Shown here: one piece after another, positions 8,649 to 58,902 of the stretch
Layout of the letters: the number at the start of each line of letters is the position of its first letter
How positions within the stretch are numbered: the first letter of the stretch is position 1
The notes under the pieces: model-generated
What the model saw: the letters and a program-made list of their open reading frames with translations, nothing else
Databases searched by the model: none
Told to the model about the DNA's origin: nothing
DNA from: an uncultured Hyphomonadaceae bacterium
GTDB lineage: Bacteria; Pseudomonadota; Alphaproteobacteria; Caulobacterales; Hyphomonadaceae
Length of the DNA stretch: 64,000 bases
Assembly: GCA_964352025.1 (NCBI GenBank)
Contig: CAYGPZ010000009.1
Coordinates: forward strand, 26,971-90,970
Reading direction: 5' to 3'
Made by a program: the position numbers and the translations under genes

Positions 8649-10697
8649 ATGACTAAAACACAAACCGATAATGAAGAAGTTGCTGAAAACCAGGATGGGC
8701 CAGTACTTGATTTATCGAATGCAAGTGTAAAGAAATTTATCGCAGCTGGTAAAGCGCGTGGTTTCGTTACACATGATGAATTGAACAAAGTTCTTCCATC
8801 GGACGAAGTAAACCCTGACCAGATTGAAGACATCATGTCTGCTCTGAGTGAGATGGGCATTAACGTTGTCGATTCTGAAGATGAAGTAGAAGAAAATTCA
8901 GAAGCCGAAGCGACTGGCACGAAAGTCACGAAAGCGAAATCCACCGCGGCGACAACAGGTGGCCGTTCGGATCGTTATGATCGTACTGATGACCCTGTCC
9001 GCATGTATTTGCGTGAGATGGGAACTGTAGAGCTTCTCTCCCGTGAAGGTGAGATAGCTATTGCCAAGCGTATCGAGGCTGGCCGCGATGCAATGATCCG
9101 TGGGCTTTGTGAAAGCCCGCTTACATTTGAAGCGATCATGGTCTGGCGTCAGGAGCTTGAAGACGAGCGGGTTCTTCTGCGTGACATTATCGACCTTGAA
9201 GCAACTTATGCAGCTGCAAATGGTGGTGTGCCAGATAACTCTGCTGCGGCTGTTGCTTTGGAAAAAGGTGAGCTGCTTCCAGAGCCTGTGAAAACACCTG
9301 AGCAAATTGCTGCTGAGAAAAAAGCTGAAGAAGAGGCTGCCGCTAAAGCAAAACGTATTGCTGATGGTGTTGAAGAGCCTGAAGACGAAAACAAAAACGA
9401 AGAAGACGATGACGATTTCGATGATGGCGGCGCAATGTCCATGTCCGCCATGGAAGCAGAGCTTCGCGAAGGCGTAACGGAAATTCTAGACAATGTAGCG
9501 TCAGAATTCCAAGCATACCGCCGTTTGCAGGAAAAACTGGTGACACGGCACCTTGAAGGTAAAGAGCTTTCTCCAAAAGATTCAGAGGAATATCTCAACC
9601 TTCAAAACGAGATTATCGAAAACCTCAAAAAACTTCACCTGAACAACGCCCGTATTGAGACATTGGTTGAGCAGCTTTACGCGATCAACAAGCGTTTGAT
9701 GAGCCTTGAAGGTGGATTGATGCGTCTTTCGGATGCGCATGGCGTGCCGCGTAAGTCTTTCCTCGACAATTACTTTGGTACCGAGCTTGAGCCGGATTGG
9801 GGAGAGCGCGTTTCTGCGATTTCCGCCAAATGGAAAAAGTTCATTGCGGCTGAAAGCAATAAAGTTGAAGAAATGCGCGCTGAAATTTCTGGTCTATCTC
9901 AGGAAATGGGCGTGCCGATTGAAGACTTCCGCCGCATTGTGGCGACCGTTCAAAAAGGTGAGCGCGAAGCACGCGTGGCCAAAAAAGAGATGGTCGAAGC
10001 CAACCTTCGCCTTGTGATCTCTATCGCCAAAAAATACACAAACCGTGGGCTTCAATTCTTGGATCTGATCCAAGAGGGAAATATCGGTTTGATGAAAGCG
10101 GTTGATAAGTTTGAATATCGCCGTGGTTACAAATTCTCGACATATGCCACATGGTGGATCCGTCAGGCGATCACGCGGTCTATCGCGGATCAGGCCCGTA
10201 CAATCCGTATTCCTGTGCACATGATAGAGACGATCAACAAGATCGTACGGACTCAGCGTCAAATGCTTCACGAAATTGGCCGCGAACCAACACCGGAAGA
10301 ATTGGCCGACAAGCTTGGCTTGCCGCTTGAGAAAATCCGTAAGGTTCTCAAAATCGCAAAAGAGCCAATCTCTCTTGAAACGCCAATCGGTGATGATGAA
10401 GATTCAAACCTTGGTGACTTCATCGAGGATAAAATGGCGCTTCTGCCTGTGGATGCGGCGATCCAGTCTAACTTGCGTGAAACAACAACACGCGTTCTGG
10501 CTTCGCTAACACCACGTGAAGAGCGTGTTCTACGTATGCGTTTTGGTATCGGGATGAATACAGACCACACACTTGAAGAAGTCGGTCAGCAATTCTCGGT
10601 GACACGTGAACGTATCCGTCAGATCGAAGCCAAAGCGCTCCGCAAACTGAAACACCCAAGCCGCTCACGTAAGTTGAGAAGTTTCTTGGATACGTAG
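8649..10697 (+). CDS. rpoD: RNA polymerase sigma factor RpoD (sigma-70)
   Basis: Region 2 ([41 protein letters not shown]), regions 3 and 4 ([30 protein letters not shown]), and an acidic non-conserved insert. Confidence 0.97.
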
Positions 10698-10698
10698 T

Positions 10699-11283
10699 AT
10701 GAAATTTGGGGGGATTTTATTTTTATTCTTAATTTGTGCAGCAATTTCACCTGTCGCTGCACAGGTTAGGGGAGAGCCCTTCCATACATTTGAGTTTGAT
10801 CCTCCCGCGGGACGCTATGAACCCGACAATGATATTGTGGGAGAGAGACTAAAGGCAGGGGCAGCAATTTTAGGGAAAGTTGTTCTAGTACGTTGTGAAA
10901 ATACAGAAAAATTTGGTGCTGGGTTCAGACTTAGAGTACGTGATGTAGCCAAGAAGAATTTATTTTATGCTGGTTTTGTGTGTGACCCGCAAACTGGAGA
11001 AATGACTGCAAATACCAAAGTTTATAAAAAACTACAGAGTGGTGAGTGGGAAAAAGTGAAAGAGGGCCAAAAAATGCCCATTGGTCGTAAGAATGAGATT
11101 GTCGAATTTACCGTCGAATTACGTGGCAAGATTTTATTTGGTAGTTATGGAGACTATTCTTTCCAAAGAGCATTAGATTTTGAACCGATCACTATTGAAT
11201 ACTATGGCTATGGAGCAAAGGGCATGGCTCAGTTCTGGGAAGAATATTTGCAGCTATCTTATTTAGAATATCAAATAAATTAG
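10699..11283 (+). CDS. Hypothetical secreted protein
   Basis: Cleavable signal peptide (ILFLFLICAAISPVAAQ). Beta-rich mature part with no recognised motifs. ATG lies 1 nt after the rpoD TAG. Appears more AT-rich than rpoD by eye. Confidence 0.55.
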   Translation: MKFGGILFLFLICAAISPVAAQVRGEPFHTFEFDPPAGRYEPDNDIVGERLKAGAAILGKVVLVRCENTEKFGAGFRLRVRDVAKKNLFYAGFVCDPQTGEMTANTKVYKKLQSGEWEKVKEGQKMPIGRKNEIVEFTVELRGKILFGSYGDYSFQRALDFEPITIEYYGYGAKGMAQFWEEYLQLSYLEYQIN

Positions 11284-11289
11284 TCATAA

Positions 11290-11327
11290 AAAGCCCGATG
11301 AGAAATGGTCGGGCTTTTTATTTTTTG
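11290..11327 (+). terminator. Rho-independent terminator
   Basis: AGCCCGA-tgagaaatgg-TCGGGCT followed by TTTTATTTTTT. Confidence 0.75.
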
Positions 11328-11402: not shown

Positions 11403-13544
11403 ATGATGAGAAAAGGGCAGTTATTTATGGCTGCAGATTTCAATATCGATAGTCGACGGAATTTAGCGCGCTGGCTTAAAGGTAAGCCAATAGAGTGGAG
11501 TTCCATTTTAGCAGAACGTACCGCATTGCGTGTGCTGCCATTGATATCAGGCGTCTCTGAATCATTCCCTCATAACCCAAAACTGACGCTCGATGTTTTT
11601 AGAAGTGTGATTTGTCTGCGAAGTGGCTCGGCTGATGCATCTGCCATTGCGGCGACAATAGCGCGTTCTTCTGCGCGAACGGTGCGTGTATCTATAGAGC
11701 ATGACCCAGCTGCTTCAGCCTATGCTGCGGCGGCATTGAATGCGTTAAGTGCTGCTGGAAGCGCGGTGATTGAACGCGGTGGCAAGGCCATTGATGCAGC
11801 GTCTAGTGCGGCTGGTTTCTCTGTGGCTGCTGCCAATGCTGCTGCCGATTATTCAAATTCAGATATTGATGATGTTGATGCGGCTATGTGGGGCGCAATA
11901 CAGGCCGATTGTGAAACGCTGAAAATTGTCGGGTCGAAAGATCTTTCCAGCGCGCCATTATGGCTTACGCCAAGATTGGGCGTGATAGAGGGATTTTTGG
12001 GCCGTTTGTTTGATATGTACCAGAATATGGGCACAGACTGGCGATGTCTCGTGCCGTGGTATGAAGTAATTCTTGAAGCCAAGTGTGAAGAGTATTCGTC
12101 GAGCATATATAGCGAATTAGCAGCTGTATCAGAAGATTTCTGGGAGCGTCCGACTGATTTGGTAATTTCTGAAATTGCACAAATGCTGGGTTGGGATGGC
12201 GGTGATTTAGAAGAACCATCAGATGAAATTAGCCGACCATCTATCAAACCCATTTATGTGCCAGAAATGCGTGAAAGCATTGAAGAGCCACAAGATGTTG
12301 CGCCTGAAATATTAGAGATTGAGCCTGAGGATATTGAAGAACGCGACTTTTTCGTCTCCTATTCTAATAAAGATGTTCGCACCGCAAAATTGGTGAGTGA
12401 GGTTCTGGAAAAAGCCGGATATTCTACATTTGCGCAATTTAAAGACATCAAGCAGGGGGCTAATTTCGTTGGTCAAATGAATAAGGGGCTGGCATGTTCC
12501 AAACGCCTTATATCATTGCACTCTCCTGACTATGAGGCTTCCGAACATTGTCAGTCTGAATGGTCTTTTGCCTATAATGAGGACCCGAATGGGAAGCGAC
12601 GTAAATTAATCCAGTTCGTGGTTCGGCCGACCTCGCTAAATGCACTTGCTCGACAAGTTGTGTACCGCTCGCTGATTGGGTTGCCCGATCACAAGAAGCG
12701 CGAGGAAATTTTAGACGCTGTCGGTTATAGTCCTCCAAAGAGGTCTGTTGATGAGGCTGTTAAAGCGCTCGCCAGTCAGGCCAGCCCAGATGCTCAGCTG
12801 AGTGATGATTTTAAACTGGATGCTGGTCCCAATGCAAAGTTGGACAATCCGCTTGTCGATGTTGAATTGGCAGACCTTCCCATTATTCAGATTAGCGTAT
12901 GTAAAGTCCTTTTGCAGGGAGCACCCGGAAACGCCTCTAAGGTCGTGACGGCAGCACTTGAGGAATATAAATCCCATTTAGAGCAACGTGGTGCCAATCC
13001 TGTCGTCGGGCTGCTCGTGGCGCATGGACAGTCTATCTTGGCTGAATTTAATGGGCCGGATGCGATATTGTGGGAAGATGCAGGCATTCGCCAGCAAATA
13101 GATGCATTCTCTGCCAATCACGACCGTCTTATTACTCATTTCCCGCTAAACGCTGATCGCGAACGTTTGTATTCGGAAACGCGCGTCGACGAGTTGGCGG
13201 CTTCTGGGGACGCCCTTAAAGGTCCGATTGTGAGCACGATTGAGGAATTAAGACCAGTTATTGATGCGGGTATGGCAACACGCGAGTTTGAACAAACCTT
13301 TGAAGATATTGAGCAACGGCTTGAACTCATCGAAGCGTCGCCGCCAAGTATGACATCGCCGAAAGAGAACTATGATCGTGCAACACCAAGGAGCCGATTT
13401 GTGTTGCAGACATTGGGTTTCTTTGCTTCTGCACATAGCGTTGCAAATTCGACCCAGACAATTGTGAAGAGCGTGCAGGGAAGTGCTTTTATTTCTGCAC
13501 TCGCGACAGCCATTTCAAAAATGAAAGTGTTCTTATCTTTATGA
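11403..13544 (+). CDS. TIR-domain protein with uncharacterised N- and C-terminal domains
   Basis: Central TIR (~aa 314-440, nt ~12342-12722): RDFFVSYSNKDVRTAKLVSEVLEKAGYSTF...RLISLHSPDYEASEHCQSEWSFAY. The start may be Met9 (11427). Confidence 0.85.
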   Translation: MMRKGQLFMAADFNIDSRRNLARWLKGKPIEWSSILAERTALRVLPLISGVSESFPHNPKLTLDVFRSVICLRSGSADASAIAATIARSSARTVRVSIEHDPAASAYAAAALNALSAAGSAVIERGGKAIDAASSAAGFSVAAANAAADYSNSDIDDVDAAMWGAIQADCETLKIVGSKDLSSAPLWLTPRLGVIEGFLGRLFDMYQNMGTDWRCLVPWYEVILEAKCEEYSSSIYSELAAVSEDFWERPTDLVISEIAQMLGWDGGDLEEPSDEISRPSIKPIYVPEMRESIEEPQDVAPEILEIEPEDIEERDFFVSYSNKDVRTAKLVSEVLEKAGYSTFAQFKDIKQGANFVGQMNKGLACSKRLISLHSPDYEASEHCQSEWSFAYNEDPNGKRRKLIQFVVRPTSLNALARQVVYRSLIGLPDHKKREEILDAVGYSPPKRSVDEAVKALASQASPDAQLSDDFKLDAGPNAKLDNPLVDVELADLPIIQISVCKVLLQGAPGNASKVVTAALEEYKSHLEQRGANPVVGLLVAHGQSILAEFNGPDAILWEDAGIRQQIDAFSANHDRLITHFPLNADRERLYSETRVDELAASGDALKGPIVSTIEELRPVIDAGMATREFEQTFEDIEQRLELIEASPPSMTSPKENYDRATPRSRFVLQTLGFFASAHSVANSTQTIVKSVQGSAFISALATAISKMKVFLSL

Positions 13545-13659
13545 ATTAAGAAAGTGGTAGATGAACCTAACCTAAACGGAGCGTTTTAATCAGGTTCAAG
13601 TGCAGCGTTGAATATAAGAAAGAAACTAAAAATCAATCGGCTATAACAGGGGCTGTTAC

Positions 13660-14490
13660 ATGCAAGATTATCTCGATAAATTGGATATAAATCAGTATTT
13701 GCCAGGCGCAATTGGCGTCGCGACGAATATTTTACTCGCAATTGTTATTCTCATCATAGGTATGTGGATTGCTGGCGCGGTTAGTAAATTCGTGCGCGGT
13801 CTAGGTGAGAAACATGAGAAATTAGACAGTACACTGTTTAAGTTCCTCAGTAGCGTGGTCCGCTACGTTATCATGGCGTTTGTTGTGATTGCAGTGTTGA
13901 ATCGGTTTGGTGTTGAAACAACCTCTATTGTAGCATTGTTGGGTGCGGCTGGTTTGGCAGTTGGTTTAGCGCTTCAAGGGGCTATGTCTAACCTTGCTGC
14001 TGGTGTGATGTTGATGCTGTTCCGCCCTTATAAAGTTGGCGATTTTATCGATGCTGCCGGTCGTTTTGGTAACGTGACAGAGATTGATCTGTTCACGACA
14101 ATTCTTCAGACATTCGACAATCAGCAAATTATTATTCCCAACAGCCAAGTATGGGGTGAGCAGATCGTGAACCATTCTCATCACCCGGTGCGTGGTGTCG
14201 ATATGGTCGTCTCTGTTGCTTATGGTGAAAACACTGATGAAGCTCGCAAGGTTATTGACGGCGTATTGGCTGGGAACGCACATGTGTTGGCTGATCCGGC
14301 TCCATTTGTTGAAGTCGAAACTCTAAATGAAAGTTCTGTTGACTTCAGAGTGCGTCCATTTGTGAAGGGCGAGAATTATTTCGACGTTCTTTATTCGGTT
14401 CCTGAGCAAATGAAGAAAGCTTTGGATGCTGCAGGAATTGAAATTCCATTCCCGCACCGCAAAGTGATTGTGGTCAATCAGGACAAATAA
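13660..14490 (+). CDS. Mechanosensitive ion channel, MscS family (small)
   Basis: Three TM helices, then PYKVGDFIDAAGRFGNVTEIDLFTTILQTFDNQQIIIPNSQV, the typical MscS beta-domain. Confidence 0.9.
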   Translation: MQDYLDKLDINQYLPGAIGVATNILLAIVILIIGMWIAGAVSKFVRGLGEKHEKLDSTLFKFLSSVVRYVIMAFVVIAVLNRFGVETTSIVALLGAAGLAVGLALQGAMSNLAAGVMLMLFRPYKVGDFIDAAGRFGNVTEIDLFTTILQTFDNQQIIIPNSQVWGEQIVNHSHHPVRGVDMVVSVAYGENTDEARKVIDGVLAGNAHVLADPAPFVEVETLNESSVDFRVRPFVKGENYFDVLYSVPEQMKKALDAAGIEIPFPHRKVIVVNQDK

Positions 14491-14512
14491 TTTAGACTGT
14501 AGATTTTAGAGA

Positions 14513-14543
14513 AAGCCACTCAATCAAATTGGGTGGCTTTTTA
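14513..14543. terminator. Rho-independent terminator
   Basis: AGCCACTC-aatcaaatt-GGGTGGCT followed by TTTTT. Confidence 0.7.
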
Positions 14544-14554
14544 TATTTGGAGCG

Positions 14555-23323: not shown

Positions 23324-23400
23324 GGGCCTGTAGCTCAGTTGGTTAGAGCAAACCGCTCATAACGGTTGGGTCGGGGGTTCGATTCCCTCCGGGCCTACCA
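23324..23400 (+). tRNA. tRNA-Met (anticodon CAT), elongator type; tRNA-Ile2 (lysidine) cannot be excluded
   Basis: A 77-nt cloverleaf folded by hand. Acceptor GGGCCTG/CGGGCCT, D-arm GCTC-AGTTGGTTA-GAGC, anticodon arm AACCG-CTCATAA-CGGTT, T-arm GGGGG-TTCGATT-CCCTC, encoded CCA. It lacks the initiator features (1:72 mismatch, three G:C pairs in the anticodon stem). Confidence 0.9.
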
Positions 23401-57745: not shown

Positions 57746-58777
57746 TTAGCTTTGCGCTTGTGTTTTAGAGAATGTTTTTCGGTTCAATCCTTTGAAAAAG
57801 CCAATGGGCACCGAGATGAGTGCGCAAAATGGGAAAAGCACAAGGAATCCGATGAGCGGCGTATAAAAGGCAATGTCACCCGCAGCCATCGCATCTGTGC
57901 CGTCAAACTCAGTTGAGCCAGCCCAAGCAAATAGGGCCGTCACGACAAGCGTTATGCCCATGACCCAGCGTGTTGGTGAATCAAAGTAGAAAGTTGACTT
58001 TCGTTTCGCCAAACGTCGCCCAGCAACAATAAGGGATCGACCAATTACCAATCCCAATCCTGTAAACAAGAATGCGAGTATTGTGTTCAGCACTAGGTTT
58101 TCTACATCTCCGAGCGTTTCGTCATACATGTCTGAGAAGTGCGCCAGTGCACCTAGGATAACTGCCGCTACGCCTGATATGATGAAGGAGGTAATCCAGA
58201 ACGTACTTAAAAAGCTACGTTGTTTCTTTTCTTCCTTTAGAATTTGCGCGACCGACTTATTATTGGGTTGCGCATTGATACCTGCAGCGATGGTGCTGCG
58301 CTTGATATCAGCAGCAGCTTCCAATGGTGCGCCAAATGGGTTGGTTTCACCTTCGATTGGGGCATCCTCTTCGACGTGACCTGAAGCCGTGCGTCCAACG
58401 AGACCTTCTAGACCAAGCCAGATATCTTCAAGCACACCTTTGTCTTTTCCATCCCATCCCTTCAAAGCGACAGTATGGATTTGACGAAATCCCAAAGGCG
58501 GAAGTGAACCATCAATTGAAATAGGTAAAAGTCTGTTTCTGTCACGTCCAACCGCTGCTTCATCTCTTACCCAGTGAGATGCGCGAGATTTGCCGGACCA
58601 AAGCACGATCACGGCTTTGGCACTGTCGAGCAGTTCTTCGATCATGGTTGTGTAATCATCGCCGGCGATGAGGTCTTTGTCCCACCAAACGTCATAGCCT
58701 TCTTCGATTAAATGTTCGGCTATGATTTTAGCCGCGCCTTTATCGACATGAGAGTAGGATATAAAAACATCCGCCAT
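57746..58777 (-). CDS. TIR domain fused to a four-TM C-terminal module
   Basis: MADVFISYSHVDKGAAKIIAEHLIEEGYDVWWD...AVIVLWSGKSRASHWVRDEA (TIR), then four hydrophobic helices. GGAGA RBS before the ATG at 58777. Confidence 0.8.
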   Translation of the reverse strand: MADVFISYSHVDKGAAKIIAEHLIEEGYDVWWDKDLIAGDDYTTMIEELLDSAKAVIVLWSGKSRASHWVRDEAAVGRDRNRLLPISIDGSLPPLGFRQIHTVALKGWDGKDKGVLEDIWLGLEGLVGRTASGHVEEDAPIEGETNPFGAPLEAAADIKRSTIAAGINAQPNNKSVAQILKEEKKQRSFLSTFWITSFIISGVAAVILGALAHFSDMYDETLGDVENLVLNTILAFLFTGLGLVIGRSLIVAGRRLAKRKSTFYFDSPTRWVMGITLVVTALFAWAGSTEFDGTDAMAAGDIAFYTPLIGFLVLFPFCALISVPIGFFKGLNRKTFSKTQAQS

Positions 58778-58902
58778 TGGCGTATCTCCGTGTGGTTCCA
58801 ACGCATTAACCTTAGCTTCGCGACGTTATTTTGCAAATAAAACTATTATGGCAATCGCCTCGCGCTCTTGCTACGCGCGCCAATAGGTTTTAGGCAGCAC
58901 AG

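Follow-up and report, generated by a model that had tools for sequence, protein, structure and literature searches.

The subject of this report is a gene at positions 11,403 to 13,544 on the forward strand of a 64,000-nucleotide stretch of contig CAYGPZ010000009.1, which comes from an uncultured Hyphomonadaceae bacterium; the whole of this stretch will be referred to as the window. [quoted passage not shown] We propose, at a probability of roughly 0.4, that this protein is a single-chain cytoplasmic sensor-effector in which a variable N domain acts as the sensor and controls a TIR NADase, with a possible role in defense. The proposal leans on the conserved active-site residues of the TIR domain, on the purifying selection acting on the TIR and C domains, and on the mosaic variability of the N and C domains among close relatives. 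The parts of the gene are as follows (pLDDT, predicted local distance difference test).

11403 to 13544, forward strand: three-module protein, longest open reading frame (ORF), 713 aa; probable true start at ATG 11427 (705 aa)
11430 to 12188, forward strand: N domain, Ala-rich helical bundle plus Trp-rich subdomain, aa ~9-262; putative sensor or specificity module
12207 to 12332, forward strand: acidic disordered linker, aa 269-310, pLDDT <50
12348 to 12680, forward strand: TIR domain, Pfam match aa 316-426, fold aa 314-440; predicted NAD+-cleaving effector
12558 to 12560, forward strand: codon of Glu386, putative catalytic glutamate, family-invariant and aligned with Cat1 E74
12711 to 13541, forward strand: C domain, aa ~437-712, short beta hairpin (LDAGPN..D.P), then a helical bundle

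The first-pass annotation described the center of the protein as a bacterial TIR domain, and this description holds. The Pfam family TIR_2 (PF13676) matches aa 316-426 at an E-value (E) of 5.8e-20, scoring 72.4 bits where the cutoff is 28, and TIR (PF01582) also lies narrowly above its threshold. No further Pfam family passes threshold anywhere in the protein, and the PADLOC and NCBIfam matches are weak and confined to the TIR. An AlphaFold2 model of the full-length protein, built on 12 family sequences (mean pLDDT 78), has a helical N part at aa 18-261, the alpha/beta fold of the TIR at aa 314-440, and a helical C part at aa 492-708. When the model was compared with the PDB by Foldseek, 46 of the top 50 matches were TIR domains (probability 1.00, template modeling (TM) score on the target up to 0.76), and the center matched solely TIR structures. 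By its profile match and by its flavodoxin-like alpha/beta fold, the protein belongs to the TIR_2 family.

The two motifs that had been pointed out earlier, DFFVSYSNKD (aa 315-324) and ASEHCQSEW (aa 379-387), are both present, and the glutamate claimed for the catalytic position is indeed found there as Glu386. The best sequence match among solved structures is Cat1 (E 0.0028), a CARF-TIR NADase, with which S319, N322, S380 and E386 align as the identical residues S7, N10, S68 and E74. These residues of Cat1 line the NADase pocket, and the substitutions N10A, S68A and E74A each abolish the induced growth arrest in vivo (PMC12162218). The likeness ends at the TIR: Cat1 senses cyclic tetra-adenylate (cA4) through its CARF domain and is found at type III CRISPR loci, whereas the present protein has no CARF domain and no CRISPR context. 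Within its own family (alignment A1), the invariant TIR residues are F316, F317, S319, Y320, N354, F355, V356, Y377, S380, C383 and E386. With this glutamate and its active-site neighbors in place, the TIR looks catalytic at the level of sequence, and it would be expected to cleave NAD+.

The argument for a sensor comes from the way in which the gene varies at a fixed position in the chromosome. Both in this window and in four Rhizobiaceae it stands directly behind the pair dnaG-rpoD or in the slot that begins there. In those four Rhizobiaceae loci the rpoD genes are 93-95% identical, while the TIR-family genes in the slot behind them are just 30-73% identical. Seven Rhizobiaceae loci (L006, L007, L010, L011, L020, L025 and L029) have a DUF930 gene downstream. 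The DUF930 protein is Pro-rich with an N-terminal transmembrane segment; it is the one conserved downstream neighbor in the Rhizobiaceae and, together with rpoD, brackets the variable slot. Universal synteny as a core gene had been named in the first-pass annotation as an argument against a defense role, and it is nearly what is seen, given that the dnaG-rpoD slot is shared by this window and several Rhizobiaceae; yet the content of the slot is hypervariable and the gene itself is sporadic and often decayed. Comparison of close pairs, by locus or by database protein (P0004), gives the following identities.

L007 and L011: N 24%, TIR 90%, C 84%; at the N/TIR border, identity goes from ~30% to 95-100% within ~20 residues
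L010 and L011: N 21%, TIR 84%, C 70%; at the N/TIR border, from ~20% to 85-95% near aa 280-315
L002 and P0004: N 33%, TIR 78%, C 84%; at the N/TIR border, from ~28% to 80% near aa 520-557 of L002
L007 and L020: N 54%, TIR 73%, C 27%; identity drops at ~aa 450

The N domain is the differing part in most close pairs and the C domain in one. The sharp jumps in identity, together with the replacement of the C domain between L007 and L020, indicate that the modules recombine at domain borders. Rates of nonsynonymous to synonymous substitution (dN/dS, by the method of Nei and Gojobori, with the rows for the pairs L010/L011 and L023/L024 left out) are 0.03-0.13 for the TIR, 0.08-0.18 for the C domain and 0.13-0.36 for the N domain, whose dN exceeds that of the TIR by a factor of 2.5 to 17. 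Both the TIR and the C domain are therefore constrained functional units under purifying selection, which argues that the gene is functional. A module for specificity or sensing would be expected to vary in this way on a conserved effector; polymorphic toxins show the reverse. The earlier suggestion that the flanking domains may act as sensor and regulator gains real weight from these comparisons, as the N domain is replaced or hyper-diverged in close relatives while the TIR and C domains are conserved.

The N domain is recognizable by a set of motifs, RxALRVLP ... PLW ... WxxWxxWYExxLxG, whose residues are invariant or nearly so in alignments A1, A2 and A4. The domain in this protein matches profile A2 with an independent E-value of 2.6e-68 over profile positions 2-246 of 246, and most of it is modeled by AlphaFold2 at a pLDDT of 80-95. 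An Ala-rich helical N-terminal part followed by an acidic linker had been read from the sequence before, and both are seen in sequence and model; the linker is longer here than in the relatives and shows as an insertion in alignment A1. Neither Pfam, NCBIfam and PADLOC nor the sequences of the PDB gave a match to the N domain, the profile search of the latter returning noise. Its profile finds 5,337 proteins at E<=1e-3 among 1.84 billion representative proteins; the number falls to 3,815 at E<=1e-10 and further to 1,024 at E<=1e-30. The Trp-rich PLW...WxxWxxWYExxLxG stretch is invariant or nearly invariant in the top 150 of these matches, so they do not rest on alanine richness alone. The N domain thus defines a family that is very large and lacks annotation, and the contexts in which it has been seen to date are all alphaproteobacterial. 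All named copies are called "hypothetical protein", and a search with the N-domain alignment returned nine such entries only.

Within that family the N domain is combined in many ways. It occurs in one to four tandem copies across the family, and in one to three within the subfamily that carries a TIR. Among 146 newly found representatives, 11 have a TIR, and many have the C domain without a TIR. The remaining ones fall into two further all-helical C-terminal classes, often with transmembrane-like C-terminal helices; the profiles of these two classes, run against the PDB, returned designed-protein and helical-bundle noise only. Ten N-domain relatives examined with Pfam and NCBIfam gave no further match save for one KAP NTPase. 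In this distant relative (P0149, L038 8001-10940) a KAP-family P-loop NTPase (Pfam E 5e-22), weakly similar to QatA, is joined to the N domain where our protein has its TIR; the gene sits on an alphaproteobacterial chromosome with housekeeping genes around it. Sampled N-domain genes are solitary and have alphaproteobacterial housekeeping neighbors such as GcrA and MucR. One N-domain-only protein of 326 aa (P0163, L039 7001-7981) lies at the end of a prophage-like block with an Ig-repeat tail-fiber-like gene, a GH108 lysozyme and many small ORFs, and an S24 repressor-like gene is found ~6 kb off.

The C domain is equally unrecognized. No match was found in Pfam, NCBIfam, PADLOC or the PDB sequences. 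Modeled alone with AlphaFold2 it reaches a pLDDT of 84 and a predicted TM score (pTM) of 0.82, and this model has no fold match in the PDB (best E 0.33, TM score <0.25) or in BFVD; in the Foldseek comparison of the full-length model with the PDB, nothing better than E 0.05 was returned for either flank. That both flanks are unrecognizable, as the first reading had it, is therefore borne out by Pfam, NCBIfam, PADLOC, PDB sequences and PDB folds alike. The protein matches the C-domain profile with E 1.2e-103, and the bundle ends in a conserved helical hairpin rich in small residues. A helical C-terminal domain with a hydrophobic end had also been claimed. The helical part of this claim stands; the hydrophobic segments fall below the transmembrane threshold and are modeled as packed helices of the bundle. 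A C-terminal transmembrane anchor was considered and rejected for this protein (maximum KD19 of 1.49; helices modeled as packed, with pLDDT 94-97).

Like the N domain, the C domain also occurs without a TIR. On Ti and At plasmids of Rhizobium and Agrobacterium it is found (E 1e-50) behind a different, also unrecognized N-terminal module of ~230 aa. In pTiK1_93 of Rhizobium sp. K1/93 (L043 600-14500) the C-domain gene is flanked by PIN_12/DndB and by an ABC-3C system (ABC ATPase, MComp1 and SIR2), with an integrase adjoining, and the whole is an apparent defense island. In pAtK224b of A. tumefaciens (L042 6302-7810) the gene adjoins VapBC, an integrase, a recombinase and IS110. Inherited together with the TIR, the C domain would serve as a scaffold, an oligomerization module or a regulatory module.

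The protein was first taken to be an orphan, which it is not. The protein database contains 12 relatives over the full length, and about 30 loci are known from genomes; all have at most 36% identity over long alignments (up to 41% over the TIR and C domains alone). The N domain, moreover, belongs to a very large family. A pattern-based scan of 185,579 species, one genome per species, found 32 loci, and this count is a lower bound because of the pattern-based scan. Thirty of them are intact or decayed N-TIR-C genes, all alphaproteobacterial; the other two are partial, TIR-only matches outside the class. The carriers of the N-TIR-C form include Rhizobium, Agrobacterium/Allorhizobium vitis, Bosea, Methylocystis, Methylobrevis, Hoeflea, Sphingomonadales and metagenome-assembled genomes (MAGs) from soil. 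Several copies are frameshifted or split (L008, L015, L022, L031 and L035), and two Bosea loci (L034 at ~9896-10291 and L036 at ~9839-10471) have only TIR fragments at the slot where the Bosea loci L012-L014 carry an intact gene. The split copies reflect either gene decay or assembly errors, and errors in MAG assembly may account for some of the frameshifts. The sporadic distribution fits a dispensable gene.

If the protein is a sensor-effector, its working might be pictured as follows. The N domain, as the specificity module, would bind a trigger, for which a protein from a phage or some other invading element is the most plausible candidate. The C bundle would most likely keep the protein in an inactive assembly or supply a surface for oligomerization. 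Binding of the trigger would release or cluster the TIR domains, and a composite active site would then form between neighboring TIRs, as in SpbK and Cat1; in the latter, the active site forms between stacked TIRs (PMC12162218). NAD+ would be hydrolyzed, possibly with a product of the cyclic ADP-ribose (cADPR) type, and the growth of the cell would stop. The NADase activity, the nature of the trigger, the oligomerization and the outcome for defense are all predictions of this scheme.

The working model for this scheme is SpbK of Bacillus subtilis, an abortive-infection protein and single-gene TIR NADase; it becomes active once its TIR domains have been clustered by a phage portal protein, which forms the NADase site (PMC12847820). 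The two have in common a single gene, a TIR NADase with a non-TIR part, and no partner. They differ in that there is no detectable similarity outside the TIR, that the flanking domains and the N-TIR-C order are not those of SpbK, and that SpbK is carried by the mobile element ICEBs1, while this gene stands in the chromosome with core genes around it; the activity, too, is a prediction here. A second point of comparison is the pair DSR2 and DSR1. Each is reported to be a single polypeptide with a SIR2 NADase and a large all-helical domain, to which a phage structural protein binds (PMC11087589, PMC10973363). An NAD+-degrading domain is thus joined to a large helical domain in one chain in both cases, although the catalytic fold of DSR2 and DSR1 is SIR2, no search made here showed the helical domains to be related, and DSR2 is a tested defense protein while the present one is predicted from sequence. 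It is also worth noting that 12 of the 32 tested TIR proteins of E. coli defend against phage, and that they sense diverse phage components (PMC11350192). In its presumed working our protein would be most like the single-gene NADase sensors SpbK and DSR2, and it shares none of their non-catalytic domains. The novelty lies in the two flanking domains, in the way they are exchanged as modules and in the mosaic alleles at a fixed slot; the TIR effector itself is familiar.

A similar layout is known outside bacteria. SARM1 (ARM-SAM-TIR) combines a helical regulatory domain and an oligomerization module with a TIR NADase in one chain. SARM1 TIR structures are among the Foldseek matches of our model, and both proteins have helical or oligomerization modules beside the TIR; unlike SARM1, which is eukaryotic, the present protein has no ARM or SAM domains and another order of domains. 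Other bacterial systems with TIR domains do not agree with what was found. As stated in the first-pass annotation, no partner of a described TIR system is nearby: SIR2, SLOG, Macro, STING, SAVED, pAgo (prokaryotic Argonaute) and STAND are all absent within ~5 kb. The TIR proteins of CBASS, Pycsar and type III CRISPR systems can be set aside, as Pfam found no SAVED, STING or CARF domain and there are no cyclase or cas genes nearby; the SAVED_TIR model of PADLOC matches the TIR only (aa 315-394, E 0.001). No NTPase domain was found with Pfam, NCBIfam or PADLOC, as there would be in a TIR protein of the STAND/NLR type (Avs, bNACHT, NB-ARC). For SPARTA and the short pAgo systems, the Aga_TIR match is again to the TIR only (E 7e-4), and no pAgo is among the neighbors.

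There are, on the other hand, a good number of observations which weigh against a sensor-effector with a role in defense, and they should be set out together. The neighborhood gives no support to a role in defense: the 150 genes within 3.5 kb in the 30 loci are housekeeping and metabolic genes (translation GTPases, ABC transporters, CrcB, LysR regulators, SoxYZ, biosynthetic enzymes) with no recurrent defense gene and no enrichment of defense genes, and the PADLOC matches among them are few, weak, scattered and at the level of domains. The N-TIR-C genes do not lie in defense islands, have no link to mobile elements and are not carried by plasmids; only the plasmid-borne relatives of the C domain lie in such islands. 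No member of the family was found in a scan of 2.9 million viral contigs (IMG/VR) or by tblastn in a phage collection. The region around the gene in the window is core genome (dnaG, rpoD, mscS), its G+C content is like that of the surroundings and flanking repeats are absent, and the conserved slot behind rpoD is compatible with an old resident gene. The gene-wide dN/dS of the N domain is raised, but it stays below 1. Plasmids hardly ever carry the N domain. In most N-domain proteins an enzymatic effector cannot be recognized, so the basic role of the family may not be an immune one. As for the TIR, the same glutamate is aligned in TLR15, a non-enzymatic animal TIR, which makes Glu386 necessary for catalysis but not sufficient. 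Finally, just 37.5% of the tested E. coli TIR proteins were antiphage (PMC11350192).

Much of this would be accounted for if the protein had a lineage-specific cellular role outside immunity, the N family being resident in the Alphaproteobacteria, for example as a membrane-associated scaffold or as an envelope or stress factor, and the TIR an interaction module or an NAD+-linked regulator of the physiology of the cell itself. The size of the N family, its chromosomal location and near absence from plasmids and phages agree with such a role, as do the many members that have helical C-terminal parts only, often with transmembrane-like helices and no enzyme, the solitary position of the genes among housekeeping genes, the conserved slot next to rpoD, the purifying selection on the TIR and C domains and, in this organism, the probable co-transcription with mscS that is described below. 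Against it stand the sporadic and often pseudogenized N-TIR-C form, the module swaps at domain borders and the extreme divergence of the N domain beside a 90%-identical TIR, which would be unusual for a housekeeping scaffold. The invariant catalytic constellation and the C domain in plasmid-borne defense and mobile islands point in the same direction, and the adjacency to mscS is unique to this organism. On balance we hold a non-immune role to be unlikely, though of the alternatives it is the one that survives best.

Another possibility is that the TIR makes a signal of the cADPR type or a related one, as ThsB does, which would be read by an effector encoded elsewhere or by the C domain of the same protein. 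The best profile matches, weak as they are, are to the Thoeris TIR models ThsB1 (E 1.5e-4) and ThcB4 (E 7e-7), over the TIR only; the active-site residues are conserved, and in this subfamily the TIR and the C domain are always passed on as a pair. Apart from being a bacterial TIR, the protein nevertheless has little of a Thoeris ThsB. The NCBIfam score for ThcB4 is 28.4 bits, far below the cutoff of 220. Among the neighbors in the window and in the 30 loci a SIR2, SLOG or Macro gene is not found, and the loci have neither a ThsA-type partner (SIR2/SLOG or Macro-TM) nor any other conserved partner gene; ThsB proteins, for their part, come without these flanking domains. In the known signaling TIR systems the sensor and effector genes lie adjacent to each other, which also counts against a separate reader of the signal, and we find this possibility quite improbable.

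The last alternative, a secreted TIR effector of the BtpA/BtpB/TcpC or polymorphic-toxin type aimed at a eukaryotic host or a competitor, with the N domain in trafficking, is very improbable: several carriers are plant-associated Rhizobiaceae, a shared N-terminal module with varied C-terminal parts superficially resembles polymorphic toxins and BtpA structures are among the Foldseek matches, but there is no signal peptide, transmembrane segment or secretion-system gene nearby and no conserved immunity gene downstream, the N domain varies while the TIR and C domains are conserved (in polymorphic toxins it is the other way round), many of the carriers are MAGs or live freely in soil or water, and BtpA, at rank 30 (E 0.022), is no closer than dozens of other TIRs. 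An effector of the Btp type had been offered as the alternative in the first-pass annotation, and it finds no support, on the same grounds (no signal sequence or secretion context, carriers mostly free-living in soil and water, and the rank of BtpA). Both BtpA/TcpB of Brucella and the present protein are alphaproteobacterial TIR proteins with similarity in the TIR fold, whereas the Btp proteins are small, secreted and from an intracellular pathogen, and nothing here indicates secretion or a host target. A small conserved "immunity" ORF downstream of the gene was considered as a candidate and dropped, as it is present at only two loci by crude ORF calls and is not general.

Returning to the single-chain sensor-effector, we would like to consider what it could mean in a wider context. 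Enzymes with TIR domains are common to bacterial, plant and animal immunity, and the sensing of the threat is what sets the different TIR systems apart. A broader and more doubtful idea is that the N domain represents a new and very large class of single-chain immune receptors of the Alphaproteobacteria, in which a hypervariable, tandemly duplicable sensor of invaders is tied to interchangeable outputs: the TIR NADase with its C scaffold, the KAP NTPase, or helical parts with membrane-anchoring ends (the last not in this protein). If the N domain is indeed a sensor, there would be a new receptor class in rhizobia, agrobacteria, methylotrophs and sphingomonads, bacteria whose phage defense is poorly studied. 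It would also mean that genes of immunity can be maintained in the form of mosaic alleles in fixed slots of the core genome, such as the one downstream of rpoD, and not in mobile islands, so that discovery based on islands would have missed these receptors. Should the role turn out not to be immune, the protein would still mark a large uncharacterized protein family and the rare recruitment of a TIR into it.

Some details of the gene and its surroundings remain to be given. The ORF of 713 aa at 11403-13544 on the forward strand, as first reported, is present. The probable translation start is the ATG at 11427, for a product of 705 aa; this form is favored because the ATG is preceded by AAGGG and because the database protein P0001 (705 aa) is a 100% match to it, the only such match in a database of 5.8 billion proteins. 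Records of this exact protein come from a single NCBI contig and a single sequencing run. The features that delimit its transcription unit are these.

11286 to 11321, forward strand: intrinsic terminator closing the unit of dnaG, rpoD and a 194-aa ORF; 14-bp stem, then a T run
13660 to 14490, forward strand: gene for an mscS-type mechanosensitive channel (Pfam MS_channel domains)
14510 to 14548, forward strand: intrinsic terminator behind mscS, where the transcription unit probably ends; 15-bp stem, then a U run

The upstream terminator has a folding energy of -20.7 kcal/mol (z -5.0), and none of 200 shuffled sequences folds equally well; the one behind mscS has -22.6 kcal/mol (z -4.96). The interval between the TIR gene and mscS (13540-13662) has a fold z of -0.76 and contains nothing terminator-like. 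Because there is no terminator between the two genes and a strong one behind mscS, they probably form one transcript in this organism. The claim that the gene is a transcription unit of its own with a terminator upstream is thus right about the terminator and probably wrong about the unit. A general functional link to mscS was rejected: the two genes are adjacent only in this organism (the window and L001, which has the same sequence), and an organism-specific adjacency does not imply such a link.

Upstream of the gene in the window are carA, yqeY, dnaG, rpoD and a gene for a 194-aa secreted protein without a family match; the MscS channel, YjbQ and an M28 peptidase follow downstream. The order carA-yqeY-dnaG-rpoD is the same as in Rhizobiaceae, and the rpoD of the window is 63-64% identical to the rpoD of Rhizobium and of Methylocystis, which points to an alphaproteobacterium, with a G+C content of ~45%. 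The 194-aa ORF (10699-11283, forward strand) begins 2 nt behind the stop codon of rpoD; its N-terminus is signal-peptide-like, it has no Pfam match, and it is found in this organism only and is not kept beside the TIR gene in the other loci. Recent horizontal insertion of the TIR gene was also considered and found no support in the G+C content, which equals that of the surroundings, or in flanking repeats, which are absent.

When all proteins of the window were scanned with PADLOC, no complete defense system was found. There were single-model matches to MzaA (E 1.7e-75), RT_UG29 (2.9e-40), RTasDnaG-like (8.1e-29, presumably DnaG) and mad2, which are probably domain-level matches of housekeeping genes; ten large ORFs of the window scanned one by one were negative. 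At gathering thresholds, Rfam matches the window only once, at a tRNA gene at 23324-23397 on the forward strand. The second, unrelated TIR protein that had been noticed in the window is real and is encoded at 57746-58801 on the reverse strand. It has an N-terminal TIR_2 domain (aa 11-120, E 2.8e-22) that keeps the glutamate in the motif SHWVRDE, followed by at least three strongly hydrophobic transmembrane helices with a weak holin-like match, which makes it a candidate TIR-transmembrane membrane effector. The gene is solitary between a ClpP-like protease gene and rlmJ, and it is the clearest defense-like gene in the window.

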